Shown: piece after piece, positions 3,535-55,529 of the stretch
Position numbering within the stretch: position 1 is the first letter of the stretch
How the letters are laid out: every line of letters starts with the position of its first letter
NCBI GenBank assembly: GCA_030619825.1
Contig: JAUXAS010000002.1
Location: 3,363-67,362 of the forward strand
Direction of reading: 5' to 3'
DNA from: Hadesarchaea archaeon
Lineage (GTDB): Archaea; Hadarchaeota; Hadarchaeia; Hadarchaeales; Hadarchaeaceae
Length of the DNA: 64,000 nucleotides
The notes under the pieces: model-generated
Told to the model about the DNA's origin: nothing
Seen by the model: the letters and a program-made list of their open reading frames with translations, nothing else
The model's database searches: none
Translations under genes and position numbers: made by a program

Positions 3535-3843
3535 ATGAAACAATTCGTGGTGGCCGAGCTCTCGGTGGTGCCGATCGGGACTTCAGGCACGGGTTTGAGC
3601 GATTACATCGCGGCTGCCCTACGCGAGGTCAAGAAGGCTGGAGTGAAGTACCAACTCTGCCCTACGAGCACGGTCTTTGAGGCCGACCTAGAGACCGTAC
3701 TGGAGGTCGCGAAAGCCGCCCACCGGGCCGTCATCGGCGCTGGCGCCAAGCGCGTGATCACGACGCTCCGCATAGATGAGCGTTTGGACCAGCCCAGAAC
3801 GATAGAGGAGCGCGTCGAGCGGGTGGCGGCCAAGGCCAAGTAA
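3535..3843 (+). CDS. MTH1187/YkoF-like thiamine-binding protein (DUF77)
   Basis: About 100 aa. VAELSVVPIGTSGTGLSDYIAAA...YQLCPTSTVFE...RVITTLRIDER fits the MTH1187 family pattern. Confidence 0.7.
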   Translation: MKQFVVAELSVVPIGTSGTGLSDYIAAALREVKKAGVKYQLCPTSTVFEADLETVLEVAKAAHRAVIGAGAKRVITTLRIDERLDQPRTIEERVERVAAKAK

Positions 3844-3931
3844 ACGGAAGAGAACCTCGCCTAGCCGAGCTTGAACGATATCTTTATAAGGCAGTTTTAC
3901 CCCTAAAAATTCAATCCCGTTGGTGATGCTC

Positions 3932-15263: not shown

Positions 15264-16055
15264 ATGCCGAAGAGGGGCTTCCAGGAGCTCTTATCTCTCC
15301 TAAAGCCAAAACGTGAACGCGGGATCAAGATAAAGTTAAAACGTGCTAGGACGATCGGCATCTTTTCATGCAAGGGTGGCGTCGGGAAAACGACGACGGT
15401 GGCAAACGTTGGATTATGCTTGGCCAGCTATTTTGGGGGCGATGTTTTGGTGGTTGACGCAAACTTCGGTGCACCGAATTTGGGCCTGCACTTGGGCGAA
15501 CTAAACCCGAGTGTAACCATCCACGATGCCTTGGCTGGGGAGGTGCCTATCGAGGAGACGATTACGAAGCACCATGGCTTGCAAACTATCCTCGGCTCGA
15601 TCGCGTACGGGGAGGAGATCCATCTCATCGATCTAGGGGATTACTTGAGGCCCCTGAAGAAAAAACACAAGGTGATCCTCATCGACTCTGCACCTGGTAT
15701 CGGGGCCGAGGTGGTCGCCGCAATGAAGGCGTGCGATGAGATGTTTATCGTCACCAACCCCCATATCCCGACCATCGCGAGCACCCTCAAAACCTTCCGT
15801 ATGGCGGAGCGGTTCAAAATCCCGATAATCGGTGTAGTCGTGAACAGGGTCCGAGGAGAGCCTTTTGAGCTCCCCATCAAAGATGTGAAGAAGGCCTTGG
15901 GGTGGCCGATCATCGCTGTCGTGCCAGAGGATTCCAAAGTCCGCCAAAGCACCGCAGTCGGCGTCCCCATCGCGCACTATAAGCCCAAGTCCCGAGCAGC
16001 GGTTGAGTTCCGGAGGCTAAGCGAATTCCTGATTGAACATGTCGCGAAGGGCTGA
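15264..16055 (+). CDS. MinD/ParA-family P-loop ATPase (archaeal MinD-like)
   Basis: Deviant Walker A IGIFSCKGGVGKTTTVAN and Walker B VILIDSAPGIG. Confidence 0.8.
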   Translation: MPKRGFQELLSLLKPKRERGIKIKLKRARTIGIFSCKGGVGKTTTVANVGLCLASYFGGDVLVVDANFGAPNLGLHLGELNPSVTIHDALAGEVPIEETITKHHGLQTILGSIAYGEEIHLIDLGDYLRPLKKKHKVILIDSAPGIGAEVVAAMKACDEMFIVTNPHIPTIASTLKTFRMAERFKIPIIGVVVNRVRGEPFELPIKDVKKALGWPIIAVVPEDSKVRQSTAVGVPIAHYKPKSRAAVEFRRLSEFLIEHVAKG

Positions 16056-16089: not shown

Positions 16090-19000
16090 TCATGTGTGAT
16101 GTGCCTCAGCCGAAGATTTCCTACTGCGTTTTTTCTTTAACTTGCCCACCGCTTTCTCCAGCCGCTTGAGTATGAAGTAGGGCTCGTGAATAGGCTTCGG
16201 GGGTCTCTTTAACTTATATAACCTGTAAGCTAAAGCGGAGCCACCGAGCGCCACTCCGAGCGATAGCAATACGTAGAATACGATGGGCACAGCTGGAGGC
16301 ACACGCTTCTCGCCCGCCGCCGCGAACAGCGAGAACCTAGACGTGGTCGCCTCGTAGTAGAGGTAGGTGGAGTCAGCTCTAACCGCCCTTGTCGACAACC
16401 TCTGCCATCCGCTGCTATACCTGAACAGCTTGATCGTGCCCTCATCGATATCGTTCTGCTCGATCCAAGATCTCAACACCCTAAACTCAACCTCCGTGGA
16501 GCTGATGTTGGCTGCTGTAACGTTTGTGGTGACGATCCCGAAGTAGGGGTAGATCACTCCACTCGGCACAGCCACCTGCTCGGGACTCCCGGCAAACTCC
16601 TCAACCGTGATTTGTAGAGCGCTAACCCCAGCATCAATCACATCTTGCGTCACGGTTATCGATACTTTCACTATGAAAATACGATAGGACGTGAAGTCTG
16701 CCGTGACAGTCCCGCTCGCGGGTATGGGTCCGATCGTGACGGTAGGTATCTCGACCCTGACGACCAATAACCAAGCGTCTGTCCACCCACCGACGTTTCC
16801 GGCCCCGTCGATCGCCCGGACTCGCCAGTGATAAGTGCCCTCGGCCAACGCCTCCGAAACACTGAGCTGGTACACCGAAGTCGTGAGTCCGACCTTGCTC
16901 AGGACAGGCGAGCTGAAGTCCGAGCTGTCATCGACGACCAGCTCGTAGGCAACGCCGGAGAGGTCAGTGATATCAGCCCAATTGAATGTCGGCGCGGTTT
17001 CGTCGGTCATCGCTGTATCTGCGGGGGACACTAGTTGAATTGCGGGTGGCGCCGTGCGATCGACACCGCATCGAGCCTCGACCTGTATCTTGGCTGGCTC
17101 CTCGTTGGAATTGTCATCCTTGGATATGGAGTGGAACTCGTAGTACCCATCGCCCTTGGGTGCGGTGAACGACCACGACCAGGGTTCGACGCTGTCGACC
17201 CCGAATAGCGTCCAGCTGTCCCAGCTCGAGTTGTTGGTCGAGTAGCGGTACCAGAGCGCGACGTCGGTCAGATAGCCATCGTTGTCGCTTGCAGTTGCTG
17301 TGATGGTGAAGGGCGTGGCCGTCTGCCAGTAAGGCGTGATGGCATCCACGGATGAGATTGGGATTTCGGGCGGTGCAAGGGTGATCGTCAGCCCATAAGT
17401 TGTCGAACGGATCTTTCCATCCTCGCCCGTGCCCGTGATCGTTATCGTGTAGGTGCCCGTGGGAGCGCCCCTGCCCACGCTCATAGTGAGCGTCGAGTCG
17501 GAGCTCGGGGTGCCGTTATCTGGTGAGAAGGTGACCGTGACGCCGCTCGGCTGACCGCTCGCGGTGAGGTCGACCGTGTAGCTGTATCCCTCGATCGCCG
17601 TGACGGTGACGGTCGCCGTCGTGGAGCTGCCCTGCACGACCTCGTCACTCGTCGGGCTCACCGAGATGCTGAAGTCCGGCGCAGGTGGAGGTGGAGGCGG
17701 TGGCGGAGGCGGTGGTGCGGTGGACACTGTTAGAGACCAAGTGTTTGACCAGTCTCCCACGTTGCCTGCATTATCAATCGCTCGAACGCACCAAGAGTAA
17801 TCACCATCCGAGAGGGCCTTGCCGCTTGTGAGCGTGTAAGTTGAGGTGGTCAATCCGGTCTTGGTCAGCGTTCCTATGATCTCCAGCGTGTAGGTGACAC
17901 CCGATGGGTCGGTGACATCGGACCAGTCGAAGGTCGGTGTGGTATCATCGGTAGTCGTTCCGTCCGCTGGCAGGTAGAGAGTTGGCTTGGACGGGTAGAC
18001 GGGGGCCCCGATTACGCCCGTCCACGTTTCGATAAGCTGCCACGCGGCCGGGGCTTCAACCGTTCCCGTCCAGGTCTCGATCAACTGCCAAGCGGCAGGA
18101 GCCTGAATGGTTCCTGTCCACGTCTCGATCAGTTGCCACGTAATTGGAGCTTCGACCGTCCCAGTCCATGCTTCGATCAGGTTCCACGCACCAACCACCA
18201 CCTCGAAAGTCCACATGTTATCGGACCAGTTGTCGCCTTGGGCGTTGCGCGCGCAGACCTTCCAGTAGTAGTTGTCCAGCGGCAGCTCAGTCGTCGGGGT
18301 GAAGGAATTATCGCCGATTATCGTGTTGTCTATTGCGTTTTCCCCATCCGCGAAGTTCGGATCGTTGTCGACTACCAGTCTGTGGTTCTCCGCATTCGTC
18401 CCGTTCTCCCATTCGAAGTAAGGGGTGTTGTCGTAGGTCTTGGTAGCGTTCTCGGGCAGGTAGAGCACGGGCTGCCCAGGTGGGGCTTGGATCGTGAGCT
18501 TGAAGTTATCGGCCCATGAGCTTTGGTTGTTTGCAGCATCAACGGCACGGGCGCGCCAGTAGTACACACCGTCCGATGCGAAAGTATAGATGTACGAGTT
18601 GTCCGCGAGCCCGATGTTCTCGTGCACATAGAGTGAAGCGAACGAGGTCTCGTTGTCGATCTGGATGTCGTAGGTGACGCCGGGCTCGGGCTCGCTCCAA
18701 GTGAAGGTCTGGGTGAGATTACTTCCAACCGCATTGTTCTCCGGTAATACCAACGTGGGCGCCGACGGCGCCTGGGTGTCCACCACTAGCGTCCAAGTCT
18801 CCGCAGACTCATTCTCGCCCTGCGCGTTGATCGCGATTACCTTCCACGAGTAGTTATCATCGGGTAAGCTGTTTTCATCCGCTATGGTGTAGTTATTATC
18901 AAGCACAATTCGATTCTCTTCTGGCGATGAGAAGTCTGGGTCGTTGTCGACGAGCAACCGATGATTATCGGCGTTCGTACCATTCTCCCACTCAAAGTAG

Positions 19001-20043
19001 GGCATGTTGTCATTCGTAACCGTCCCATCAGCGGGCAGATAGAGCGCGGGCTTGCCTGGCGGAACCTCTGCCGGAGTATAATCCACCACCACCCATATTT
19101 CTGAAACGCGTATCAGTTCTGCTCCATCAACAGTGTCTGCTTTGACACCTGCTTCTAATGCCGTTACCTGCGCTTTTGTCCAACTGCCTGCACCTCCTGG
19201 ACCTGTAAGTTGAGTTCCTAGATAATCATTCCAAGAGTCTCTCGTTATTGTGTGTTGTATATCTTCGTAGTCTGTGCCATCAACTCTGTAAGTATTGTAA
19301 GCTGTTTCAGCTCCAGCAGAACCAACACCATAGGCCCTGAAATTTATTTGAACCCAATTAATTGTATAAGAATCACCAAACGTGGGGTCATCTAGATTCT
19401 CAATATCCCTTTCTTCTACCACGTTAGTGTAAATAAATGTTGTGTCAGTTGGGTCTGAAGTTGCTCCCCAATGACTTGTACCATTCAAATCCCATTCTTG
19501 ATAAGTTCCTGCCGCATTTGGTCTCAAGGTTTCCTGATCTGGAGGGTCCGCAACGATCCCCATCCAGTCATCGCTGACCGCGCTCCCTCCTTGGTAGGTC
19601 AGCTCGGAGTGGAAGTAGTACTTGGTCGGTGGCGACGTTAGTTGTGGAGATCTGATCACATAGGGTCTAGAAACAAAATCGCTGACTGCGCCAACGTTCC
19701 ACTCTATCTTACTGTAATTTTCATCGTACACGCTTACGACTCCACCGTTTGCGTCGACCACGGTCCAATCGCTCGAGAAGTAATCAGCCAGGACCGCGTT
19801 TTCCACCTGACTTGAAACGGTTGCGGTAATCGTCATGGTTACCGAGGTGAGAGGTGGCACTTTGTGCTGACCGACCCGATCTCCGGATAGCCACCTATCG
19901 AACGTTACCTCAGCGCCAGCCTGAGCCGCGGTGACCTGCTCGCTCAAGACCACGAAGATCGGGCTGGTTAAGAGCATCACCAGCATCACCAGCGCGGTCA
20001 ACGTTGCCCCGGCCCTCTGGTTTATCTTGAATCGTTTACCCAT
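16090..20043 (-). CDS. Giant multidomain cell-surface protein (signal peptide, repeated Ig/FN3-like modules, PGF-pre-PGF-like domain, C-terminal TM anchor)
   Basis: Signal/anchor MGKRFKINQRAGATLTALVMLVMLL. At least five modules with the pattern LYLPADG...F.W...Y.W.VRA.D.AGN. A P11 linker. C-terminal hydrophobic helix VFYVLLSLGVALGGSALAY followed by a basic tail. Start set at ATG 20043. Confidence 0.85.
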   Translation of the reverse strand: MGKRFKINQRAGATLTALVMLVMLLTSPIFVVLSEQVTAAQAGAEVTFDRWLSGDRVGQHKVPPLTSVTMTITATVSSQVENAVLADYFSSDWTVVDANGGVVSVYDENYSKIEWNVGAVSDFVSRPYVIRSPQLTSPPTKYYFHSELTYQGGSAVSDDWMGIVADPPDQETLRPNAAGTYQEWDLNGTSHWGATSDPTDTTFIYTNVVEERDIENLDDPTFGDSYTINWVQINFRAYGVGSAGAETAYNTYRVDGTDYEDIQHTITRDSWNDYLGTQLTGPGGAGSWTKAQVTALEAGVKADTVDGAELIRVSEIWVVVDYTPAEVPPGKPALYLPADGTVTNDNMPYFEWENGTNADNHRLLVDNDPDFSSPEENRIVLDNNYTIADENSLPDDNYSWKVIAINAQGENESAETWTLVVDTQAPSAPTLVLPENNAVGSNLTQTFTWSEPEPGVTYDIQIDNETSFASLYVHENIGLADNSYIYTFASDGVYYWRARAVDAANNQSSWADNFKLTIQAPPGQPVLYLPENATKTYDNTPYFEWENGTNAENHRLVVDNDPNFADGENAIDNTIIGDNSFTPTTELPLDNYYWKVCARNAQGDNWSDNMWTFEVVVGAWNLIEAWTGTVEAPITWQLIETWTGTIQAPAAWQLIETWTGTVEAPAAWQLIETWTGVIGAPVYPSKPTLYLPADGTTTDDTTPTFDWSDVTDPSGVTYTLEIIGTLTKTGLTTSTYTLTSGKALSDGDYSWCVRAIDNAGNVGDWSNTWSLTVSTAPPPPPPPPPPPAPDFSISVSPTSDEVVQGSSTTATVTVTAIEGYSYTVDLTASGQPSGVTVTFSPDNGTPSSDSTLTMSVGRGAPTGTYTITITGTGEDGKIRSTTYGLTITLAPPEIPISSVDAITPYWQTATPFTITATASDNDGYLTDVALWYRYSTNNSSWDSWTLFGVDSVEPWSWSFTAPKGDGYYEFHSISKDDNSNEEPAKIQVEARCGVDRTAPPAIQLVSPADTAMTDETAPTFNWADITDLSGVAYELVVDDSSDFSSPVLSKVGLTTSVYQLSVSEALAEGTYHWRVRAIDGAGNVGGWTDAWLLVVRVEIPTVTIGPIPASGTVTADFTSYRIFIVKVSITVTQDVIDAGVSALQITVEEFAGSPEQVAVPSGVIYPYFGIVTTNVTAANISSTEVEFRVLRSWIEQNDIDEGTIKLFRYSSGWQRLSTRAVRADSTYLYYEATTSRFSLFAAAGEKRVPPAVPIVFYVLLSLGVALGGSALAYRLYKLKRPPKPIHEPYFILKRLEKAVGKLKKKRSRKSSAEAHHT
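18017..18208 (-). repeat. Four tandem 48-nt repeats inside the giant surface protein gene
   Basis: Units start at 18017, 18065, 18113 and 18161. They encode W(N/Q)LIE(A/T)WTG(T/V)(V/I)(E/Q/G)AP.. four times in a row. Confidence 0.9.
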
Positions 20044-20298: not shown

Positions 20299-20530
20299 TG
20301 TTTCGGCCCCTCCTTTTGACCAAGCTGGAGGGCGAGGCTCCCGGCGTAGTCCTCATCGCTCGCTCCCCTCGGCTGGTTCTCGGTGCGTCCGAAAAGTCTC
20401 CTCGGTCGCCCCGGATTCGGAAAAAATCTCGATGAGCGCAAGGGTGCGAGTAAACCCCACAGCAGGTAGTCCGATCGAAACGGGGCAGTAGCTTACGCTG
20501 ACGCCGCAAAGCAAAAGCTCCCGGGTGGAT

Positions 20531-20672
20531 TTCCCGAATCCGGAAGGTTCCCGCAAGTTATGGCTCCTATCCGTTTTATGCTAGCAATCAAATCTCTGCT
20601 CGGCGCCCTTTCGGGGTCTTCGGGGGATGGAGTTGTTTCGCCCCCTATCGAAACAATATAGTTCACTTAAGG
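20531..20672 (+). repeat. Conserved non-coding module, copy A (long form)
   Basis: Core 20602-20666 is GGCGCCCTTTCGGGGTCTTCGGGGGATGGAGTTGTTTCGCCCCCTATCGAAACAATATAGTTCAC. Palindrome TTGTTTCG-N8-CGAAACAA at 20633-20656. The 5' extension TTCCCGAATCCGGAAGG..CGCAAGTTATGGCTCCTATCC is shared with copy E. Confidence 0.85.
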
Positions 20673-20927
20673 TTGCATCTATCTCCGCCGTCGCGTCGAC
20701 CTTGGTTTTCGTTGGGAAAACACCAATGAGTTTCGACAGGGGATCCTCCCCGCCCTTCTTCCCGACCCTCACAAAAATCTCGTCTCCGACCACAGTCCAC
20801 ACTACTTCATCACCATTGTCGGGTGCGTGACGTTCCTCAGCTCAAAAGTCAGGTCTCTTGTGGTAAGAGTAATCTCGCTTGTTTCCTACAAGGGGTCCTG
20901 CCCGTTTATGTAAAAATCTCCCGAGGG

Positions 20928-22259
20928 CTAACCGATCTCGAAATAGTGGCTCTCTATATCCTGTAGCCCCACGTCGTCAACCGCCTTGAAATCCACCCTG
21001 TAGACGCCCTTTGCCGTCGGTAGCGGAACATTCATATAGGTAGCCTTGAAGACAAAACCACGATCATGCTCTACCGCCATGGTGTACCAAGACCCGATCC
21101 CAATTCTGAACTCCACGCTTCTTATTTCTTTGAGCGGTTTGGCTGGGTCCTCTACCCTTTCCCAGATGTAGATCCAGAAAGTCACACTCGCACCCGGATC
21201 TATCGTCGTGGGGCTCGACTCCGTCCCTTCTGGATATGCTTTGCCTAGTTCCGGTGGGGTAGAATCTATGTAAACCTTCGCCAAGCTCTGTATTTCCAAG
21301 GTTTCCTCACCTAGAGGGTCCGCAACTATCATCATCCAGTCATCGCTGACTACGCTACCCCCGCCGTAGGTCAGCTCGAAGTGGAAGTAATACTTGGTCG
21401 GCGGCAATGTTCGTTGGGGAGATTCAATAACATAAGACTTTGAAACCGAGTCGCTGACCGTTCCAACGTCCCACTCTATCTTGTTGTGAGTCTCATTATG
21501 GATGACGGTCCCACCGTTTCCATCTACCACTGACCAGTCCTTCGGGAAGTAGTCGACTATAACCGCACTGTCCACTGGGCTCGAGACCGTCGCGGTAATC
21601 GTCATAGTCACGGGCGAGAGGGGCGGCGCCTTGTGCTGACCTACTCTGTCTCCAGATAATCGCCTATCGAACGTTACCTCAACGCCAGCCTGAGCCGTGG
21701 TGACCTGCTCGCCCAAGACTACTGTCCATATTTCCGAGACCCTTATCTCCTCTCCTGACCCTACTGTCGAGGAGTAAAGACCAATCTGTAAATCATTTAA
21801 CTCTTGCTTGGTCCACGCTTGTTGGGTATAGGGATTAACATCCCAAGTATGTGAATAATCAGTGAAGGTGTCCCTGGATACTGTTATCGGAGAACTCCAA
21901 TCACTGATAGCGTATGTGTATACCCCAATCTTCATTTTTTCTGGCTGACCACTCCCTCCAACACTTCTTGCCCTTACCCATACGGTAACACCGTTAATCG
22001 TGTCGTCATCACCAATTGATGTGTTGTCTACATTCAAAAAGTGGTCCTTATTCGGAGAAGTCGCGTAGATATATGTAGCGTCATTCTCGTCGGACGTCGC
22101 TTCCCAGTCAGATGTATCACTTACACTCCAAGTCGCGAAGATACCAGTCGCATACGTTACCTCAGCGCCAGCCTGAGCCGCAGTGCTGGTCAAGAGCATC
22201 ACCAACATCACCAGTGCGGTCAGCGTTGCCCCAGCCCTTATCTTGAACCGTTTACCCAT
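20928..22259 (-). CDS. Secreted surface protein, paralog of the N-terminal third of the giant protein (domains in swapped order)
   Basis: The signal peptide MGKRFKIRAGATLTALVMLVMLL is almost identical, at nucleotide level too, to that of 16090..20043. It shares the VEVTFDR.LSGDRVGQHK...DDWM.IVADP domain and the ...IRVSEIW.VV domain. Confidence 0.8.
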   Translation of the reverse strand: MGKRFKIRAGATLTALVMLVMLLTSTAAQAGAEVTYATGIFATWSVSDTSDWEATSDENDATYIYATSPNKDHFLNVDNTSIGDDDTINGVTVWVRARSVGGSGQPEKMKIGVYTYAISDWSSPITVSRDTFTDYSHTWDVNPYTQQAWTKQELNDLQIGLYSSTVGSGEEIRVSEIWTVVLGEQVTTAQAGVEVTFDRRLSGDRVGQHKAPPLSPVTMTITATVSSPVDSAVIVDYFPKDWSVVDGNGGTVIHNETHNKIEWDVGTVSDSVSKSYVIESPQRTLPPTKYYFHFELTYGGGSVVSDDWMMIVADPLGEETLEIQSLAKVYIDSTPPELGKAYPEGTESSPTTIDPGASVTFWIYIWERVEDPAKPLKEIRSVEFRIGIGSWYTMAVEHDRGFVFKATYMNVPLPTAKGVYRVDFKAVDDVGLQDIESHYFEIG

Positions 22260-22377
22260 CCTATTCACCCTCTGATCTTGCTCCCCCGATCGTGAACTCG
22301 TGCGGCCTGCGCAGTCGGCCCGCCTGGACTGGGCCGGGGGTTGAGCGCTCTATCGGGTAATATACGACCATGTCGTG

Positions 22378-22494
22378 GCACTCTCCTTATCTCACTCAAA
22401 CCTCTACTTGGCGCCCTTTCGGGGACTTCGGGGGAAGGGAGTTGTTTCGCCCTCTATCGAAACAATAATAAGTCACCGAAAAAATAATAAGTCA
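22378..22494 (+). repeat. Conserved non-coding module, copy B
   Basis: Core 22410-22476 with palindrome TTGTTTCG-CCCTCTAT-CGAAACAA. Contains an internal duplication of AATAATAAGTCAC. Confidence 0.85.
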
Positions 22495-22500
22495 CTTAAA

Positions 22501-22706
22501 GTGTTTCGCAAATGCCTGAAATACTATTTGAACACGCCCTCTAAATCGTTTGGGGGTTACTACGAGGAAGATCAATCGGATCCTGCACGAGATTCTCCAC
22601 CGCTTCTACGGGGGCGGTGTGCGTTTCTTTAACCAGGAGGGGGCTCGCCCAAACTTGCGCGCTCTCGCTTGGTACGGTAAACCCCCTCATCGAGCTACTC
22701 GAAGGG
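22501..22706 (+). pseudogene. 5' fragment of a wHTH regulator gene (paralog of 25474..26181), frameshifted and truncated
   Basis: Nucleotide-level alignment to 25474-25690 with 1-nt indels (GGGGGTTACTACG vs GGGGGTACTACG; CCAGGAGGGGGCTCGCCC vs CCAGAAGGGGCTCGCC). Homology stops at about 22706. Confidence 0.7.
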
Positions 22707-22769
22707 CTAGGGGCATCTCGCTGAATTTTTTCTCTAATTGTATCTTCTAGCTAAATCGGATTCGTTGTT

Positions 22770-22967
22770 GTGAGCGTCGATCCCTCTTCATCAATTCCTT
22801 CAATCGACGCGGAATCCTCACCCGAAGGTGTACAACGGTCCCGCGATCATACTTGCCGTCATTGCGCCGTCCCGGCGGAGCATCCGCTAGGTTTGGGTGA
22901 TAAGACGATCGTGAAGGTCTCAGTGGTCGATGAGAGGATAGTCATCGAGAAGGGAATGGAGCTTTAA
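22770..22967 (+). CDS. Possible degenerate AbrB/SpoVT-type (antitoxin-like) small protein
   Basis: C-terminal ...PLGLGDKTIVKVSVVDERIVIEKG resembles the swapped-hairpin AbrB motif. The N-terminus is atypical and the start is GTG. Confidence 0.3.
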   Translation: MSVDPSSSIPSIDAESSPEGVQRSRDHTCRHCAVPAEHPLGLGDKTIVKVSVVDERIVIEKGMEL

Positions 22968-23074
22968 TACCTTACCGTTTCAAGAACTCGGGTTTTGGGG
23001 ATGAGGGGCTTTGCGCATAGACTAATTCTTACACATAAATTACCCTGCGTGCACATAAATTCTCCCTGATTACT

Positions 23075-23242
23075 CTAGTAATCGGGCATTTTAGTTCTCA
23101 TCTTGGCGAACTGTATCGAGTGAAGATAACCTAAGTATGGGTCGAGGTGAGCATACACCACTCCCCTGTAGACCTCACCCTTCAGGACTTCGTGGCCCAA
23201 GTTTAGGAGGTTGTTTAGAGGGTCTTCGGCGTTGTGCTTCAT
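23075..23242 (-). pseudogene. cas1: Orphan Cas1 core fragment (55 codons)
   Basis: MKHNAEDPLNNLLNLGHEVLKGEVYRGVVYAHLDPYLGYLHS... matches the Cas1 block D.(V/L)N.LL..GY..L..EV.......LDPYLGFLH. The N-terminal domain and the C-terminal catalytic Asp region are absent. Below the 60-aa cutoff of the ORF track. Confidence 0.55.
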
Positions 23243-23279
23243 TCACTTAGGTGTTTGTAAGAAATCTGGAAAAAAGGTT

Positions 23280-23344
23280 GGCTTATTATTGTTTCGATGG
23301 GGGACGAAACAATTCCCTTCCCCGAAGCCCCCGAAAGGGCGTCC
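23280..23344 (-). repeat. Conserved non-coding module, copy C (inverted orientation)
   Basis: Reverse complement reads GGACGCCCTTTCGGGGGCTTCGGGGAAGGGAATTGTTTCGTCCCCCATCGAAACAATAATAAGCC. It sits between the Cas1 fragment and the divergent 23361 gene. Confidence 0.85.
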
Positions 23345-23360
23345 GCGCTAATTTATTTCG

Positions 23361-23630
23361 ATGGTCCTTAATCCTTTTAGCCTCGCAAAATGGATACTAG
23401 ACAAGTTCTGGTACTGGCTCGGGTGGTCTCTGATATTCCTCGGGCTAATGTACATTTTGACGGGCGTGGGGAGCAGCCAAGAGCTGATCATCGCGTGTTC
23501 CTTTGGATCATTCTGGATAACTACCACGTTTATGGATTGGATCCGAAAGGTGGAAAGGAAGGTTCGCTCAAATCGAGCGTGGAAGCGGCAAGCCATCTCT
23601 AAGTTTGCGACATTCAAGAGATCGGGCTGA
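23361..23630 (+). CDS. Small membrane protein (two predicted TM helices)
   Basis: WYWLGWSLIFLGLMYILTGV and IIACSFGSFWITTTFMDWI are hydrophobic spans, followed by a basic C-terminus. ATG lies 16 nt beyond copy C. Confidence 0.5.
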   Translation: MVLNPFSLAKWILDKFWYWLGWSLIFLGLMYILTGVGSSQELIIACSFGSFWITTTFMDWIRKVERKVRSNRAWKRQAISKFATFKRSG

Positions 23631-23941
23631 TAGACGACTTCTTAATCAGCTACAGCCAAAGATTAACTGAGGAGGACTTTGAGCGTAAAGGTGAAAGAGA
23701 GCTACAAGTTAATAAAGGCAATCAATGAGCTCTTCAATAAACGGATTAAATATCAGAAAATCAGGAAGTACGGTGAATGCTCTAAGATAAGGACTGCAAT
23801 TAGAGAGGAGCCGATAAAGCTGGCGCTACCTGAGGGGAGAAAAGGAGAGTTACGAGCCCATCATGATCCACCACCTCCGTGAGCCACGCGCGCTTTAATT
23901 GTGAACCGCCGAATTTCTACGGAAGCAAAAGGAGGCTAAAA

Positions 23942-25108
23942 GTGAGGATCGAACTTTTAAAAGGCGCCTTGCTGTCGTTGCTGTCGACCTTGGTGATAGC
24001 TTCATTAATGGCATTAGCGATTCCGGAGTTGAGTACTATTGTCAAGCGACCGAACGACCCGCCGTTCGGCGACATCGTGTTAAAGGCTGGCGAGAATGTG
24101 GGGACTTTCGCTTGGTTTGGTGAATTAGAAATCATAAAGAATATCGATGTCGTCTATGATACTCACGCCCAAGGGAGAAAGGCAGAGATAACCTTTGGGA
24201 ACTTCGATGTTGGAGCAGGGGAATTGCAATTTTAGACCCGACTATGAATATCGGTGTTGGAGAAAATAGCGAAGTAAGCCCAAGCGCTCCTACCTGGAAT
24301 TACGGAGAATATTCAAGTTTAAGAGCTGGGAGCGACCCTGGAGCAGAGGGCTGGCGTTCTTGGTTTAAGTTCGACTTAAGTGTAATTATACCGGGAGCGA
24401 CTATTTCGGAAGCGTCTCTAAAAATATATGCTTATTATGTTGGTGCAGACGAAGGATATAGCAAGATAACTTATGTTCATAAATCTGATAACGATAATTG
24501 GACAGAATCTGAGATAACTTGGAACAATCAACCTACTTATTATCCTACGGCAACTGACAATATTACAGTTCTCGATACAGGCTGGAAAACTTGGACTGTA
24601 ACTAACGATGTACAACAGAATTTGCAGGAGATAAAGTCGTTTCTTGGGTTATAAGAAAACCAGATGGGGAAGTAGTTAATTTTGAATCTAAAGAACGTGA
24701 TGGCAATGACTCATATCTTGAAATCACCTACGCCCCGTTACCCGCCACAATCGCATCGACCCAGACATCTTAAACCTTAAAAGCAGGGGCGGGTGGATAA
24801 CTGCCTATATCGAGCTGCCCTCTGGCTACAGCGTAGAGAACATCGACGTGAGCACGGTAAGGCTGATCGTCGACAACGACAACGTGCCCGCCGAGCCCTG
24901 GCCCGCTAAAATAGGCGACCGCGACAACGACGTCATACCCGACCTCATGGTGAAGTTCAGCAGGTCCGCCGTTCAGGCGCTCGCCAGCGTGGGCGAGTAC
25001 GAGGTAAAGGTGATCGGCAAGGTCGCGGGCGTGTCATTCCAGGGCAGCGACACTATCCGGGTCATTGACTTCGGCATCGACACGCTTTACCGGCAAGGCT
25101 GGGCTTGA
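23942..25108 (+). pseudogene. DNRLRE-type secreted protein gene disrupted by a stop and at least two frameshifts (paralog of 27497..28507)
   Basis: Pieces lie in different frames. There is an anchor segment up to TAG 24233. The DNRLRE-like core is 24244-24654 (NYGEYSSL...WFKFDLSVIIPGATISEASL...WTESEITWNNQP). Frame-0 piece DSYLEITYAPLPATI is followed by DPDILNLKSRGGWITAYIELP...DVIPDLMVKF...VIGKVAGVSFQGSDTIRVI. All are colinear with the intact paralog. Confidence 0.75.
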
Positions 25109-25402
25109 ACTTCAACCTGGAAAACAGCCAAGGGCTGGCGGTCAGGTTCTACACCTCCGCTGGCGTCTATCAAGGCGAGAACCTCAGAAGGGTGGCGCGC
25201 CGGCGCATGTGGTGTTCCTTGGGAGCATACCCCACCCGGAGAACAGGTATCAAGGAAAATTTCAGCGAATCCATAGTAAACAATGAATCTTACGTGGAGA
25301 GCTAGAGGGCTTATTAAACTCGGAGGCTTGTGGGGGACCGAGGAGGCGGGACCAAGGAGGCTAATAAGTCCCAAGCCCTCAAGCTCAACTGCCACTCTGC
25401 TT

Positions 25403-25468
25403 GGCGTCCTTTCGGGGATTTCGGGGGAGGGAGTTGTTTCACCCACTATCGAAACAATAATAAGTCAC
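25403..25468 (+). repeat. Conserved non-coding module, copy D
   Basis: GGCGTCCTTTCGGGGATTTCGGGGGAGGGAGTTGTTTCACCCACTATCGAAACAATAATAAGTCAC, directly upstream of the wHTH gene. Confidence 0.85.
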
Positions 25469-25473
25469 TTAAG

Positions 25474-26181
25474 GTGTTTCGCAAATGCCCGAAATATTAT
25501 TTAAGCACGCCATCTAAATCGTTTGGGGGTACTACGAGGAAGATCGATAGGATCCTGCGCGAGATCCTCCACCGCTTCTACGGGGGCGGCGAGCGTTTCT
25601 TCAACCAGAAGGGGCTCGCCAAAACTTGCGCGCTTTCGTTAGGTACGGTAAACCCCCTCATCGCGCGACTCGAGGGACTGGGGGCCATCGAGCGCAAGCC
25701 GTTGGGGTTTCGTCTCGTGGACCCGAAGCGGGCCCTGCTATACTGGGCGATCACCCGCGAGCTGGGGAAGGACGTCACCTATACCACCTTTGTCACGGAT
25801 ACGGTGGAGGAGCTGGAAGCTGGGTTACCGCGCAGCGCCATCCTCACCGCTTACTCTGGCTTCCGCGCCAAGTTGGGCTCAATGCCCGCCGATTACGACC
25901 AAGTTTTCATCTACGCTGATGCTGACGAGATGCAAGGCGCGTTCAAGCCAACCTCTCGAGAAAGGCGAAACCTATTCGTGTTGACGCCGGACGAGCACCT
26001 TCAGCGCCTGAGCGAGAAAAACGTCGCCCCGCTTGTCCAAATCTACGTCGACCTCTGGCAGCTGGGGGCGCCCGCCAGCCGATTGGTGGATGAGCTCGAG
26101 CGGGAGTTCGCGCCAGCACCTACCCGAGCGCTTGAGGGGGTTGCGAAAACCCTCGAAAGGAAACGCCGCGAGCCTAAGTGA
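25474..26181 (+). CDS. Winged helix-turn-helix transcriptional regulator with an uncharacterised C-terminal domain
   Basis: FFNQKGLAKTCALSLGTVNPLIARLEGLGAIERKPLGFRLVDP is a wHTH. The C-terminal ~150 aa is unassigned (faint AbiEi-antitoxin-like flavour). GTG 25474 is the only canonical start between module D and the conserved residues, so the start is uncertain. Confidence 0.65.
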   Translation: MFRKCPKYYLSTPSKSFGGTTRKIDRILREILHRFYGGGERFFNQKGLAKTCALSLGTVNPLIARLEGLGAIERKPLGFRLVDPKRALLYWAITRELGKDVTYTTFVTDTVEELEAGLPRSAILTAYSGFRAKLGSMPADYDQVFIYADADEMQGAFKPTSRERRNLFVLTPDEHLQRLSEKNVAPLVQIYVDLWQLGAPASRLVDELEREFAPAPTRALEGVAKTLERKRREPK

Positions 26182-26447
26182 GCTATTCTAACAGCTGGGG
26201 TGTTTTTTTGTACCCTAAATGTACTCTTCTCACCTTTTTATCTTGCCATCAAAATAACGAAGAATGTAAATCCTTGATATCTGACTAACAATAATAACCC
26301 AAAAACGATCGAGGCCCTGAAGGCGCTGGCGCGGAAGGGGTTCCTAATCCAGCCTAATCCCAACCGTGGGCGCTGCTGTATCACCTTAAAGAGTTTCGAG
26401 TTGCGTGGAAAACGGTTAACTAAACATCTTCTTCCGCAAATCCACCT

Positions 26448-26693
26448 TCAGAGAATTTCTACGCTACTCCCCACCGCCCAGCCCGGCAAGCCCGAGCGAA
26501 AGCGAGCGCGGTAGCATGCCCCGCCGTGAGCGGCAACGATTTTCCCGATGACCTTGCTCCCCGCGCGAGGGTTGAGCCATATGACCTTTCGTCCGATGAG
26601 CGAGCCTTCAAACTTTTCCAACAGACGAATTATGACCTCGTCACCACGGCGCGTGCGAAAACCGCCTCGAAAGTTGACGACCACCGCCCTCAC
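26448..26693 (-). CDS. rpl35ae: 50S ribosomal protein L35Ae
   Basis: VVVNFRGG.RTRRGDEVII...GKIVAAHGGACYRARFRSGLPGWAVGSSVEI matches L35Ae. Confidence 0.85.
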   Translation of the reverse strand: MRAVVVNFRGGFRTRRGDEVIIRLLEKFEGSLIGRKVIWLNPRAGSKVIGKIVAAHGGACYRARFRSGLPGWAVGSSVEIL

Positions 26694-27229
26694 TTGAGCA
26701 CCTCCGCCACCAGCTCGGCAAGTTGCTCAGATAACCTCGCTCGTGTACCCGGCATCACCTCGAAAATCTTGATGTCGTCACGGGCCTTGACGCCGCCGAT
26801 GAAACCCGTCCTCGTCCGTTGATGGATCACCGCTAGCAAAGGCTTGGGGGAGTCGAGCGCATCCAGCACCGAGCGCTTGAAGCCTTCGCTATATGTCTCC
26901 ATAGGGGCGATCTCATCGATGACCACGAAGTCCGCCTCTTGCAGCGCCCGCCCGATCGCCGCCTCGCTGAGCTCATCCACATTCCTAACATTCACGCGGT
27001 ACTTGCTCACCTGGGGGCCTTCGCGTTGGTTGACGTGAGCTAGGATTCGCTCCTCGCCCGTCACGAGATCAACGATCTTAAAACCGAGCCTGACGCCGCC
27101 CTCGCGAATCTCGGGGCAGTAGATCCCGCCAGCCCTGAGCCCTTGGGCCCGCAAAATTGAAATCGCGCCCTCGATGACCGAGGTCTTGCCGCTTCCGGGA
27201 CGCCCGGTAATCAGGAAATTGTTGGGCAT
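26690..27229 (-). CDS. Nucleoside-triphosphatase, THEP1/MJ1559 family
   Basis: FLITGRPGSGKTSVI, GGIYCPEIREGGVRLGFKIVDL and VVIDEIAPME are characteristic. Confidence 0.85.
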   Translation of the reverse strand: MPNNFLITGRPGSGKTSVIEGAISILRAQGLRAGGIYCPEIREGGVRLGFKIVDLVTGEERILAHVNQREGPQVSKYRVNVRNVDELSEAAIGRALQEADFVVIDEIAPMETYSEGFKRSVLDALDSPKPLLAVIHQRTRTGFIGGVKARDDIKIFEVMPGTRARLSEQLAELVAEVLK

Positions 27230-27375
27230 GCACCCCCCAAATCCGTTTCGCGCTACAAGCCAAAAATTTATTCAACAGATCTTTAATTTCTCTTTATCGG
27301 TTTAAGTTTTGGGTATTGCATCGATTGATATTCTAGGCCTCCAAGATCCCAATAAATTATGTTTTTGCTTTTACA

Positions 27376-27411
27376 TGTCTGAAACGATTAAGATTAACAT
27401 TTTCAGACATT
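27376..27411. other. Perfect 10-bp inverted repeat (hairpin) in the intergenic region
   Basis: ATGTCTGAAA-N16-TTTCAGACAT. Lies downstream of the 27497..28507 gene, near a second GGGGA...TCCCC hairpin followed by a T-rich tract. Confidence 0.4.
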
Positions 27412-27496
27412 ATCTCAATTGAGATGGTTTAAAAATAGAAATAGGAAAGGGGAGTTGGGTGCATTTTCCCCTTATTCACTTTGGTCACTCACTCGC

Positions 27497-28507
27497 CTAC
27501 TTTTTTCTTGTGCCGATTACCTTGATTGTGTCGCTGCCCTCAAAGTAAAATCCCGCGACTTCTCCCGTTATTTTCAATTCGAGCTCATCAGCGATCCCTG
27601 CCTCTTCATTGTTGACGTCACCAACATTAAGCCAGTCCACTATAGCGGCTCTGTCGAACTTGACCATGAGATCGGGGATGCCGTCGTCGTCGTAGTCCCC
27701 GATTGCGGTTGGGTCAGCTGGATCTACTACAAATTCATTCTCAGCAGCGGTCAGCTTGATAGACCCAATGGCGATTTCATTAACATCGTAGGGCTCTGGG
27801 AGCTCGATGTAAGCGGTTACCCAATTGCCATTGCTCTTCAGGTTCAGGGTGTCGGGGTCGATGTCGATTGTGGCGGGTAACGGGACGTAGGTGACTTCAA
27901 GATATGGGTCATTTGTAGCCTCCATTGAATGAAAAGATGCTGTTCGGTCTATCCAACATGCTTCGTTTTGAGTTTTCAACTTCAACGAAACGATATTTTC
28001 CCCAGCGTTATATTCATTTTCCACGAAAGATTTGACATCCCAATTATCCCAATATGCAACGTACCAAGATAATCTTTCGAGCATAGTTATGTGAGTTGGT
28101 TGATTATTCCACGTTACCCCACTTTCTATCCAGTTATCGTTATCCACAGACCACACTTCTGGTTCGGTGTAACCACTTACATTCGAGTAAGCCGTGCAAT
28201 ACATAAAAAGTTTAGCTTCAGTTATTGTTATACCAGAAGGCAAAGTTGATATGTCAAATTTTAACAAAATTCTACGAGCAGCACTTTCTTTTGTTGTAAG
28301 TAAGAGTTCAGTTGATGTGCCGTAATTGATATCAGGATTTTCTTGGTCGATATAAGCATCATTATTTGGATATAACTTCAACTTCACCGGTTCGGTGTAG
28401 GTCGCTCCAACAACAGGCACCGTCGATAGTAAAGCAGTCATGCTCACGAGCGGCGCGAGCAACGCGGTAATCAGCAGCACCGTCAGCGTCGATGCAGCCT
28501 TCTTCAT
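27497..28507 (-). CDS. Secreted DNRLRE-type domain protein with a C-terminal beta-rich module
   Basis: Signal peptide MKKAASTLTVLLITALLAPLV. INYGTSTELLL...RRILLKFDISTLPSGITITEAKL...WIESGVTWNNQP. The central part is visibly AT-richer than the flanks. Confidence 0.8.
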   Translation of the reverse strand: MKKAASTLTVLLITALLAPLVSMTALLSTVPVVGATYTEPVKLKLYPNNDAYIDQENPDINYGTSTELLLTTKESAARRILLKFDISTLPSGITITEAKLFMYCTAYSNVSGYTEPEVWSVDNDNWIESGVTWNNQPTHITMLERLSWYVAYWDNWDVKSFVENEYNAGENIVSLKLKTQNEACWIDRTASFHSMEATNDPYLEVTYVPLPATIDIDPDTLNLKSNGNWVTAYIELPEPYDVNEIAIGSIKLTAAENEFVVDPADPTAIGDYDDDGIPDLMVKFDRAAIVDWLNVGDVNNEEAGIADELELKITGEVAGFYFEGSDTIKVIGTRKK

Positions 28508-28898
28508 CCCCCACTCACCCCACCTCCATCCGAAAAGGGGTATTTAACGTTTGTGGTCGAAAAGGCTTTGCACAATAATTGGTTTTCTGCACAAAAAATG
28601 CACTGTCTGCATAATAATTGCGTGAGCCACGCAACGAGTTTCGAAACCCTTTGCGCGTGGCCGGGAAGGCAAAGTGAGGATCACCAACCAGTCCAAGCCA
28701 CGCGCGACTCGCGAATCGAACCTTCACAACGGCTGGACAAGTCCGAGCGAAGAGGATGACCGCGGATTGCCACAGTGGTTTAAGCACTAGGGGGATAAAT
28801 CGCTTTGGACCACTATGAACCAGAAGAAGTCCAAGCCCTCGATGGGTTGGGTCTATTTTGGCACCAGCTAGAGAACCGTTTCTACAAAACAATTTATC

Positions 28899-29306
28899 TC
28901 ACCCAGCAGGATTACCTGCCTGCTCCACATATTGGAGGACGGCTCTTTGGTACTTCGCCACTAAGCCTTTTCGGATGCGCCTGAGGCGCTTTATCTTGAT
29001 TTCAAACTTGCGGACCGATACGGCCGTCATCGTCACGGGCGCTGCGGGGGCTCCCACGAGCAAGGGGGTTCCCACGAGCATGGAGGACCAAGCCAGCGGA
29101 GCCCCTCCAAAAAGTTTGGTACTCATCGCCACGATCGCGAATAAGAAAACCGCAAGGCCGAAGACCCATGTCGCGAACCCAAACCTCAGCATGTTTTTTG
29201 TATACGACCATCTATTCTCCTCTAAGCGACGAAGCTTGCGCTCGGTGGTCCGGAGCTGCTGCTTAACCTCCTCGAATTTTATGAACGCTTCCCGACCCAT
29301 ATGCAT
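28899..29306 (-). CDS. Small membrane protein (coiled N-terminus, two TM helices, basic tail)
   Basis: MHMGREAFIKFEEVKQQL..., then FGFATWVFGLAVFLFAIVAM and LAWSSMLVGTPLLVGAPAAPV. GGGGAG lies upstream of ATG 29306. Confidence 0.45.
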   Translation of the reverse strand: MHMGREAFIKFEEVKQQLRTTERKLRRLEENRWSYTKNMLRFGFATWVFGLAVFLFAIVAMSTKLFGGAPLAWSSMLVGTPLLVGAPAAPVTMTAVSVRKFEIKIKRLRRIRKGLVAKYQRAVLQYVEQAGNPAG

Positions 29307-29317
29307 GATACTCCCCT

Positions 29318-29446
29318 TTCCCGAATCTGGAAGGATCTCGCAAGTTATGGCTCCTATCCAGTTTACACTCAAACCTTTACTAGGCGTCCTTTCAGCGACC
29401 TCGGGGGAATGGAGTTGTTTCGCCCCTTATCGAAACTATAATAGTC
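29318..29446 (+). repeat. Conserved non-coding module, copy E (long form)
   Basis: Core 29383-29446 is GGCGTCCTTTCAGCGACCTCGGGGGAATGGAGTTGTTTCGCCCCTTATCGAAACTATAATAGTC. The 5' extension is shared with copy A. Confidence 0.8.
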
Positions 29447-29655
29447 CTGTTATGGAGGCTGGAATTTGCGACAGATACCGCGGATTGCCATAACGATTTA
29501 AGCGCCCCGGGGATAAAGCGATTTTGGAGTTAGTCTTAGGGAGGCAACGAAGGGGGTGAAAAAGTGGAAAAGCGGGAAATTCAAATTAGAGGAACGCCTG
29601 CTATGGTAAAGCCCTTATTTGCAGACGAAGTGGTTCTTGGAGTTTCCGAAAGAAC

Positions 29656-30003
29656 CTACAGGAGGTCAGTGACCAGGGCGGCATCCCGTACATCCCTTTT
29701 AGGGCGGGTACTGCAGGCAAATGCCGGGGGGCAATAATCTGGAGGAGGATGTACCAATACTTTACAGAGCACAAGGCAGAGTTTGAGAAACACTACCACA
29801 AGCGGAGCAACGCGGAAACCGTCTTCGCCATGATCAAGCGGAAATTGGGTGTGGGCCTCCGAAACAAGAAGGAGATCAGCCAAGAAAACGAGATACTACT
29901 GAAATGTTTGGCCCACAACATCATCGTCTTGATTCACGAAATGTGCGAACTCGGGATAAAGGTTGATTTTAATTATTGTGCAGAATCGGTTTTTATGGGG
30001 TAG
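29656..30003 (+). pseudogene. C-terminal fragment of a DDE transposase
   Basis: LQEVSDQGGIPYIPFRAGTAGKCRGAIIWRRMYQYFTEHKAEFEKHYHKRSNAETVFAMIKRKLG...ENEILLKCLAHNIIVLIHEM is the conserved C-terminal third (catalytic E region). About 250 N-terminal residues are missing. Confidence 0.7.
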
Positions 30004-53386: not shown

Positions 53387-53444
53387 AAATGAAATTTTTA
53401 TGCCTAAAAACTGCCTAAATCTTGCTCCATTGGCTATTGAAGAG

Positions 53445-53487
53445 TGGTGCGGGGGAAGAGATACCGACTACCGTTTAATTCTACCGT
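53445..53487 (-). repeat. Decayed copy (b) of the tRNA-Leu 3' half
   Basis: TGGTGCGGGGGAAGAGATACCGACTACCGTTTAATTCTACCG. Confidence 0.6.
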
Positions 53488-55175: not shown

Positions 55176-55441
55176 CCTCAGCTTATAGTATGCTTTGGCT
55201 CAAATAATCTCAGTCGGGAAAGGGGTTTGGACCACTGAACAAGCATGTTGTTATATCACGTATCAAGAAAGCTAGCTTTGGTGCCATGCAGAAGCTGAGC
55301 CTAGAAAAATTGCTTTAGATTACTCTCACCCAGGGCATTTTCTGAAAATGAAATATTGGCAGTGCTGCCTGTTTCTCAGCCTAGCCGACACAGTTTCTGC
55401 TAAGGGATGATGGTTTGGGAGGGTATCTCAAAATAGTCCTG

Positions 55442-55529
55442 TGGTGCGGGGGAGGGGATTCGAACCCCCGAACCCCTACGGGACCAGACCCTGAATCTGG
55501 CACCTTTGACCTGACTTGGCTACCCCCGC
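55442..55529 (-). tRNA. tRNA-Leu (anticodon CAG), class II with long variable arm, CCA encoded
   Basis: GCGGGGGTAGCCAAGTCAGGTCAAAGGTGCCAGATTCAGGGTCTGGTCCCGTAGGGGTTCGGGGGTTCGAATCCCCTCCCCCGCACCA. 7-bp acceptor stem, anticodon stem CCAGA/TCTGG with loop TTCAGGG, T-loop TTCGAAT. Confidence 0.9.

Follow-up and report, generated by a model that had tools for sequence, protein, structure and literature searches.

The stretch of DNA analysed here (the window) is a 64-kb piece of the genome of an uncultured Hadarchaeota archaeon. The element in question is a short non-coding module present in it as five copies, designated A to E, each built around an inverted repeat (P1) with 8-nt arms and an 8-nt spacer. 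Copies A (20602-20660), B (22410-22475, or 22410..22495 including a tandem duplication), D (25403-25467) and E (29383-29446) lie on the + strand, while copy C (23279-23343) is inverted. Left-half and palindrome pattern searches of the window gave 5 matches to the left-half pattern GGCGYCCTTTCGGGGNYTTCGGGGGA, with 0.00 expected by chance, and 10 matches to the palindrome pattern counting both strands, with 0.74 expected. All five copies located by the initial annotation are thus present, and pattern, nhmmer profile and mismatch-tolerant site searches of the window found none beyond A-E. Sites with at most one mismatch are restricted to the modules and a second palindrome (P2, described below), plus one site within a coding region.

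In copy A, P1 consists of TTGTTTCG (20633-20640), the spacer (20641-20648) and CGAAACAA (20649-20656), and in copy D of TTGTTTCA (25434-25441), the spacer (25442-25449) and CGAAACAA (25450-25457); it occupies 22442-22465 in B, 23289-23312 in C and 29415-29438 in E. A perfect 8-N8-8 palindrome had been proposed for every copy, which is correct for A, B and C, whereas D (TTGTTTCA) and E (CGAAACTA) each match at 7/8 positions. The spacers found in the window are CCCCCTAT, CCCTCTAT, TCCCCCAT, CCCACTAT and CCCCTTAT. Approximately 30 conserved bp upstream of the palindrome contain the expected pair of TTCGGGG direct repeats, and a TATA-like box is located at 22464-22472 in B, at 25456-25464 in D (AATAATAAG) and, as the variant TATAATAG, in E. 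The 1-nt indels reported among the copies are real (GGGGGA-GGGAG versus GGGGGAAGGGAG), and because of these a coding reading of the module is excluded. A G-quadruplex in the left half was considered and rejected, there being just three G-runs.

The core described initially, a module of ~65 nt with unrelated flanks, is borne out, but its length is not, as homology extends beyond 65 nt in two pairs of copies. A and E share ~50 nt more on the left (20530-20578 vs 29317-29365, 90%), and B and D share ~320 nt on the right, taking in the 5' part of the winged helix-turn-helix (wHTH) gene that follows copy D. Copy B is therefore a segmental duplicate of D, which by its sequence appears to have brought along the 5' part of this presumed regulator gene and to have later decayed. 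A frameshifted wHTH pseudogene (5' part, 22530..22714, +) accompanies copy B; the promoter-like end of this copy is present twice, as adjoining 19-nt units at 22458-22476 and 22477-22495.

On the left (GGCG) side of the module, the divergent gene is usually intact, usually encodes a hydrophobic N-terminus and belongs to surface-protein families. Copy A is divergent from a giant surface protein gene (16090..20043, -; Ig-like domains, a C-terminal PGF-pre-PGF domain and a membrane anchor), copy B from a paralogous secreted protein gene (20928..22259, -; with a signal peptide and part of its 5' untranslated region common with the giant gene), copy C from an 89-aa membrane protein gene (23361..23630, +; start codon 17 nt past the module edge) and copy E from the gene for a 134-aa membrane protein with two transmembrane (TM) helices (28899..29303, -). 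A divergent exported or membrane protein gene had been expected at every copy; this holds for A, B, C and E and fails for D, which has none on its left. The neighbours named for the other side are as described: the wHTH gene at D (25534..26181, +), its pseudogene at B and a Cas1 C-terminal fragment at C (23075..23242, -; Pfam E 3.9e-9). In addition, a truncated MazE/AbrB-type antitoxin remnant (20581..20802, -) directly adjoins copy A on the right, and ~300 nt downstream of copy E there is a piece of a DDE transposase gene (29749..30003, +). Across loci, right-side neighbours comprise the regulator gene, a ~37-nt leader with the ATG of a 308-325-aa secreted protein, another membrane protein, and debris.

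An nhmmer profile built from the five window copies gave 98 matches, ~90 of which are module copies, in Hadarchaeota loci from 7 metagenome-assembled genomes (MAGs) and ~50 metagenome contigs (numbered L below); the 71 distinct cores were then aligned. An exact-pattern scan of GTDB species genomes placed the module in 12 contigs of 7 Hadarchaeota MAGs, in addition to 9 unrelated chance matches, and a metagenome scan yielded 57 loci. A viral origin was rejected, the pattern scan of viral contigs (IMG/VR) having returned 0 matches. Homologues of the regulator all come from Hadarchaeota/Hadesarchaea MAGs, and the neighbouring proteins of the window are archaeal (L35Ae, THEP1 NTPase, DUF515). The copies are clustered: five fall in 9 kb of the window, and each of three contigs of 137-323 kb has one matching stretch. 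Minimal loci contain a single module (L040, L046, L011, L015) and expanded loci 2-5, with close relatives colinear (L050 vs the window, L071 vs L075, L035 vs L080). At least five right and three left flank classes surround one core, such that a homologous upstream segment precedes non-homologous genes, as expected of a reused promoter. Where copies from different genomes have the same flanks, they also share a characteristic spacer signature (e.g. CCTGCCAT, TCCCCTAC, CTCTTAAT), with the arms kept in all. The paralogous copies are therefore old, individually maintained and not homogenised, and concerted evolution was discarded since spacer signatures track flank class across genomes.

The aligned cores reveal near-invariant stretches TTC-GGGG..GG, T.GTTTCG and CGAAAC, followed by an A/T box with consensus TAATAAG. 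The spacer and outer flanks are variable, with spacer length always 8, and the six inner palindrome pairs (GTTTCG/CGAAAC cores) are unchanged in 69-71 of the 71 sequences. Identities were compared for the 28 pairs formed by eight orthologous loci with the module ahead of the regulator gene. It was found that the palindrome arms are 94% identical, the A/T box 81% and the left 32 nt of the module 73%, compared to 41% for the 8-nt spacer; the four-fold degenerate sites of the adjacent gene are 60% identical and its protein 83%. This pattern points to selection on the arms, the A/T box and the left half, and on length only for the spacer. Dyad symmetry, fixed spacing, conserved arms and a free spacer are the features by which an operator is recognised, and all are present here.

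The right arm CGAAAC is followed after 0-2 nt by the A/T box, a layout that resembles an A-rich TFB-recognition element (BRE) followed by TATA. The TATA-like box proposed initially is thus reasonable: the A/T box directly follows the right arm, which is the presumptive BRE. In Thermococcus, TATA and BRE lie ~23 bp and ~33 bp upstream of the transcription start, respectively (PMC4247193). Most of the 71 distinct copies show the BRE/TATA layout, and the rest have variant A/T boxes (TATAATAG, TTATAAG, TATAGTT). Furthermore, it occurs twice next to the regulator gene, as CGAAAC-AATAATAAG at P1 and as CGAAAT-A-TTATTTAAG at P2. The latter, overlooked initially, is a second palindrome GTGTTTCG-CAAATGCC-CGAAATAT at 25474-25497 (+), its centre 40 bp from that of P1, and is followed by a second box, TATA2 (TTATTTAAG), which extends to 25505. 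Complete copies, namely window D, L003, L007, L015, L018, L025, L011 and L037, display the same series: the module, GTGTTTCG-N8-CGAAAYA, (T)TATTTAAG and, ~28 nt on, the wHTH N-terminus (M)[RK]KIDR. The series is decayed in B, where the former P2 is located at 22501-22524 (+) with right arm TGAAAT. The distance from the end of TATA2 to the wHTH start position is 28 nt in the window, 22-29 nt across the window, L087 and L089, and ~33 nt in L090, consistent with leaderless or short-leader mRNAs.

A palindrome in the regulator's own promoter is found in the window clade and in more distant lineages. In L090 (66% identity to the window protein), GGTTTCG-GTTATAAA-CGAAAC-AA-ATATAAGG lies ~33 nt before the ATG, with a 3672-aa Ig-like surface protein divergent from it. 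In L091 (56%), TTGTTTCG-GTTTAAAT-CGAAAC-C-TTAAAAAGG precedes an operon of a small open reading frame (ORF) and the regulator, again with a large protein divergent. In L087/L088 (52%) and L089 (47%), TTTCA-AATTTTTT-CGAAAC is followed by TATTTAAG and ATTTAAAG, respectively, 22-23 nt before the ATG. The divergent operon in L087-L089 encodes a PGF-pre-PGF surface protein, a small wHTH protein and a MinD-like ATPase, and the gene beyond the regulator is a hydrogenase gene, not the NTPase. The conserved backbone elsewhere is ordered TFB, FtsJ, TRM, MinD-like, [surface gene <- module -> regulator], NTPase, DUF515, 5-formyltetrahydrofolate (5-FTHF) cyclo-ligase and RNase HII. In distant Hadarchaeota lineages, linkage to the wHTH gene extends to the orthologue of the window's archaeal MinD-like ATPase (15264..16055, +), which is 43-60% identical to the L087-L089 ATPase. 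As palindrome and TATA are kept with the gene in these distant lineages, the ancestral unit therefore appears to comprise the regulator, a shared palindrome plus TATA and a divergent operon for a PGF-pre-PGF surface protein. P2 would then be the ancestral promoter/operator of the wHTH gene, and the ~70-nt P1+P2 module an apparent elaboration limited to the sub-clade with regulators at least about 75% identical. In L083 (Ca. Hadarchaeum yellowstonense), a different palindrome, TTGTTATA-TT-TATAACAA, occurs three times at 3760-3860, 150-250 nt ahead of the gene for the regulator homologue.

The protein presumed to read the palindrome is encoded at 25534..26181 and is a two-domain winged-helix protein that is AbiEi-like and orphan. 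Pfam assigns it only a weak MarR-type wHTH, PADLOC and NCBIfam give it no name, and an exact-sequence look-up returned no record. An AlphaFold model (62 homologues) has a predicted local distance difference test score (pLDDT) of 92.6, a predicted template modelling score (pTM) of 0.87 and two domains. Foldseek matches the first ~70 residues to DNA-binding regulators (BusR, GntR, Crp, MarR, DtxR), finds no convincing PDB match for the C-terminal alpha/beta domain and matches Rv2827c weakly. The window protein is 33% identical over its full length (E 2e-33) to a 203-aa paralogue encoded directly upstream of a Pfam-passing AbiEii gene in L001, L062, L072 and L073. Another paralogue passes Pfam AbiEi_2, and hhalign aligns the family profile to it with 88.6% probability. 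Because of these two relationships, we regard the core protein as an orphan related to the AbiEi-type antitoxins. It has no AbiEii partner, being followed by a convergent THEP1-type NTPase gene; only the paralogues of L001, L062, L072 and L073 are paired. In these four loci (L001 8711-9962), an insertion that separates the module from the core regulator gene consists of the AbiE-like pair of 203-aa wHTH paralogue and AbiEii nucleotidyltransferase. The zone to the right of the module is an insertion hot spot.

The window regulator has ACG (25534-25536) where homologues have ATG, with the frame open back to a GTG at 25474. The same ATG to ACG change is seen in 10 distinct loci including the window, L015, L018, L025, L066, L072, L073 and L001, and a change to ATA in 5 (L011, L040, L048, L056, L057). 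In these loci the 210-214-codon ORFs are intact and under purifying selection, often with no in-frame ATG, GTG or TTG ahead of the upstream stop, which suggests that translation begins at near-cognate codons of an almost leaderless mRNA. The G5 run of the window (25525-25529) is G6 in the near-identical contig L050, creating an in-frame TTG start in L050.

Taken with the conservation pattern, promoter geometry, linkage to the wHTH gene and protein family, these observations make it probable that the module is a reused archaeal promoter/operator cassette. Most likely, the five copies represent one promoter with a predicted repressor site, placed ahead of surface-protein genes and, likely, of the reader's own gene. 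In this model, the wHTH protein would bind the GTTTCG/CGAAAC arms and so block or modulate access of the TATA-binding protein (TBP) and TFB; with the right arm at the BRE position and abutting TATA, occupancy would compete directly with both. The regulator would repress its own gene at P2, whereas the P1 copies would co-regulate any transcription unit starting at or next to each of them. It is possible the two upstream TTCGGGG repeats provide extra half-site-like contacts, but this is speculative. Historically, the cassette may have been enlarged to P1 + P2 in the sub-clade and afterwards duplicated to positions ahead of more surface and membrane operons in a recombination-prone island, in some cases together with parts of the regulator gene, such that whole-block duplication would have wired further operons into one small regulon. 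The surface-protein regulon envisaged initially finds support in the association with surface and membrane genes in many related contigs, but is too narrow, as some copies head non-surface genes, such as a divergent nitroreductase / indolepyruvate oxidoreductase operon in L017 and L069.

By BRE logic, P1 is favoured to fire rightward. Bidirectional or shared control is also plausible, since intact genes lie leftward and the ATG of the 89-aa gene, 17 nt from the module edge, leaves no room for a promoter of its own. Several observations weigh against the cassette model. For the leftward genes, a bidirectional promoter is an assumption, and the model accounts for the strongly conserved left half (TTCGGGG repeats, AAGGGAG) at most speculatively. 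At three of the five copies in the window the gene to the right is a fragment (MazE at A, the wHTH pseudogene at B, Cas1 at C), and a rightward promoter drives nothing useful there. L083, L085, L092 and L093 lack the full palindrome ahead of their regulator homologue; the gene is either operonic or retains the right arm + TATA alone, the latter in L083 and L093. The window protein falls below the Pfam and PADLOC AbiEi thresholds, and its expression is uncertain because ACG replaces ATG with no plausible canonical start. A more elaborate version, to which we assign little credence, would have the cassette capture surface operons into the regulon of a domesticated antitoxin-type regulator, with inter-copy recombination reshuffling expression and the regulator throttled through a T/G homopolymer tract and ACG/AUA starts, together forming an archaeal surface-variation system.

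The main uncertainty that remains is whether another factor reads the palindrome, the module still being a promoter cassette but the wHTH protein not the binder, or the palindrome merely providing a strong symmetric BRE context. CGAAA plus TATA alone would then be kept as core promoter, as L083 and L093 indeed do, and small HTH_45 / PadR-like wHTH genes are also present at module loci. We consider this unlikely given that the two arms are equally invariant across the 71 copies and always N8 apart, and that the left arm is kept in four distant lineages that share the wHTH gene but differ in the gene on its other side. An RNA function, with the palindrome as a hairpin in a small RNA or in the 5' leader of the divergent surface-protein mRNAs, would account for the 89-aa gene, the mRNA of which must begin inside or beyond the module because its start codon is so close to the edge. 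Small CCC-N4-GGG and CUUC-N-GAAG hairpins can be drawn, and the module together with element X (see below) forms a ~190-nt composite after a TATA-like box. However, the 71 sequences contain no covariation for the palindrome or for the two small candidate hairpins (score 0.120 vs a shuffled mean of 0.122, reached by 304/500 shuffles), which counts against the leader RNA suggested initially. RNAalifold gives -7.3 kcal/mol with a covariation term of -0.25, single-sequence folding is no better than for shuffles on either strand (z ~ -1.4), and Rfam has nothing at the modules, either at the gathering threshold over the whole window or at E of 5 or less over 20400-29700. Furthermore, fixed arms and a free spacer sequence are the opposite of a typical RNA-hairpin signature and the mark of a protein-recognised DNA site. 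An RNA role is accordingly improbable.

The palindrome also resembles a crossover site, at which site-specific recombination might shuffle or invert surface-protein cassettes in a shufflon- or integron-like manner: inverted arms of 8-9 bp surround a spacer of 8 bp, the module is found in either orientation, genomes differ in how left and right flank classes are paired, gene fragments abut the right edge and the genes involved encode variable surface proteins. Such a role has only a slim chance of being correct. The spacers differ among copies of one genome, and Cre/FLP/Xer-type strand exchange would therefore be blocked. In L001 and L003, the genes called up to 10 kb from the regulator gene include no recorded recombinase family, and those window-island ORFs scanned include no integrase or resolvase, only the DDE transposase fragment. 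The tyrosine-recombinase core raised as an alternative is thus disfavoured, all the more as closely related contigs are colinear and the palindrome is ancestral as a single copy in the regulator promoter. Mosaic flanks and abutting fragments nonetheless show frequent recombination in the island, probably because the cassette is protected by selection and the sequence past its right edge is not. Still less probable is a centromere-like function, in which the repeats would load a MinD/ParA-type ATPase and the wHTH protein would be the DNA adaptor. The MinD-like ATPase orthologue is linked to the wHTH gene across deep lineages (in L092 the genes overlap in one operon), the sites are multiple and clustered, and the arm TGTTTC/GAAACA presumably resembles bacterial parS half-sites; yet the ATPase scores as archaeal MinD rather than partition ParA, minimal loci contain a single site, and the sites without exception head a transcription unit and show promoter geometry. 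Least credible is a miniature inverted-repeat transposable element (MITE) or a neutral relic of segmental duplications. The module is multi-copy with unrelated flanks, MAG copies are often at contig ends and copy B clearly stems from the ~320-nt duplication, but the module ends (GGCGCCC... / ...AATAATAAGTCAC) are not mutual inverted copies, so that terminal inverted repeats are lacking, and target-site duplications are not evident by eye in the flanks of the aligned copies, no dedicated scan having been made. The edges are graded, the intergenic copies lie beside gene starts in clusters that are orthologous across genomes rather than dispersed, and the arms are far more conserved than neutral sites; the MITE alternative of the initial annotation is largely refuted. 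Overall, the sequence evidence supports the module as a DNA-level cis-regulatory cassette, and not an RNA, a coding sequence or a MITE.

Other conserved non-coding elements accompany the modules. Element X, a ~100-nt block in the left flank of copy D (25284-25386, +), contains a 14-bp stem GAGCTAGAGGGCTT...AAGCCCTCAAGCTC around an invariant GGAGGCTTGT centre, with few stem changes, which are uncompensated. It is present in ~24 loci, where it occupies the left flank of at least 20 module copies elsewhere, preceded there by TTAAATATTGAATAGGGGGG, and never occurs without a module. Shorter conserved blocks, ACCGCGGATTGCC...GGGGATAAA and TTACGAGCCCATCATGATCCA..CGTGAGCCAC, recur near modules in either orientation (28759-28806, 29477-29524, 23850-23890; also L017, L069, L038), and the former may be the end of an insertion sequence whose transposase fragment is 29749-30003. 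A right-flank element TCTATTCGGCCTAGTTCGGTGCTCGGTTCGGGCTAG is found in L082, L075, L071, L044, L032, L019, L012, L074, L076, L041 and L028 and is absent from the window; in L041, its 12-nt unit GGTGCTCGGTTC is repeated five times in tandem.

The genes beside individual copies recur in related contigs. Orthologues of the 89-aa membrane protein adjoin C-type copies in L007, L038 and L048, and 134-141-aa two-TM orthologues adjoin E-type copies in L035 and L078. Downstream of the 134-aa gene and on the same strand lies a gene for a secreted DNRLRE/CBM96-domain protein (27497..28507, -), of which 24244-25108 is an inverted, frameshifted partial duplicate (arms 76-94% complementary; fragmentary ORFs 24244-24654 and 24848-25108). 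The giant surface-protein gene contains three 48-nt tandem repeats (18017-18160) encoding the 16-aa WQLIETWTGT(V/I)(E/Q)AP(A/I)(A/T). Surface proteins of the window (16090-16800, -) and L087 (2936-3898) have at their C-terminus a PGF-pre-PGF domain followed by a TM helix and a basic cytoplasmic tail containing the motif LKRLE/KxAV. This tail motif is also present in small non-secreted proteins at the divergent position of minimal loci (L040, L046, L066), and a link between the motif and the neighbouring MinD-like ATPase is conceivable.

Three further identities for the module were considered and rejected. A CRISPR (clustered regularly interspaced short palindromic repeats) leader or casposon end is not supported, as the window has no CRISPR array and the Cas1 piece is an old remnant with the same junction in L013 and L031; elsewhere, the right-side leader of copy C precedes an intact secreted-protein gene. 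A replication origin of the origin recognition box (ORB) type was set aside, as no orc1/cdc6 gene was noticed in the annotated neighbourhood and the sites, located at gene heads, extend over 9 kb, and so was a tRNA/attachment (att) site, the sole tRNA being 26 kb off. Near that tRNA, a 30-nt segment (53444-53473 vs 55441-55470) shares 77% identity, complete over the first 13 nt, with the 3' end of tRNA-Leu (55442-55529, -). It is located 2 kb from the tRNA, bracketing a radical-SAM gene in a low-GC stretch (50-54 kb), and the two segments could be the remnant att pair of an integrated element.

The system offers a testable regulator-operator pair and a candidate envelope-protein regulon for Hadarchaeota, for which we found no literature on gene regulation. 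It may serve as a natural example of regulon growth through copying of an entire ~70-bp promoter/operator block, and of an antitoxin-type DNA-binding protein kept on the chromosome as a core regulator. In Hadarchaeota MAGs, promoters and regulon members can be annotated with the motif GTTTCG-N8-CGAAAC + TATA.

The closest experimentally characterised arrangement is the autoregulation of AbiEi and M. tuberculosis Rv2827c, which repress their own promoters via one or two inverted-repeat pairs overlapping promoter elements (PMC7319586). Both cases combine a two-domain regulator with an N-terminal winged helix and inverted repeats that overlap the core promoter of its own gene, and paralogues of the window protein are encoded directly upstream of AbiEii nucleotidyltransferase genes in related contigs. 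In contrast, the window gene is an orphan with no adjacent toxin and a syntenic core gene of its clade, the arms and spacer are 8 bp each compared to repeats of 23 bp, the context is an archaeal BRE/TATA, and the site also occurs before unrelated surface-protein operons.

Archaeal repressors such as MDR1, LrpA, Phr and the TrmB family control their own genes from palindromic operators that overlap BRE/TATA or the start site. The module is similar in that a palindrome lies on or next to BRE/TATA, where occupancy would exclude TBP/TFB or RNA polymerase; it differs in the protein family, in the operator arm at the BRE position and in being a ~70-nt multi-copy cassette. With loxP, FRT and dif it shares short inverted arms around an asymmetric spacer of 6-8 bp, but here the spacers are non-identical, no recombinase gene is nearby among the genes scanned and no junction polymorphism is seen. 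Promoter reuse by putative mobile promoters, in which near-identical upstream regions precede non-homologous genes within and among related genomes, has been described (PMC3575422). By comparison, the Hadarchaeota block contains a defined putative operator linked to a neighbouring regulator, and its copies are old, with their own spacer signatures. Hence, an autoregulated winged-helix repressor with a palindromic core-promoter operator and the reuse of a promoter block are each of a kind already known, and what is unusual here is the size and copy number of the block, an antitoxin-type regulator as core gene and a candidate envelope regulon.

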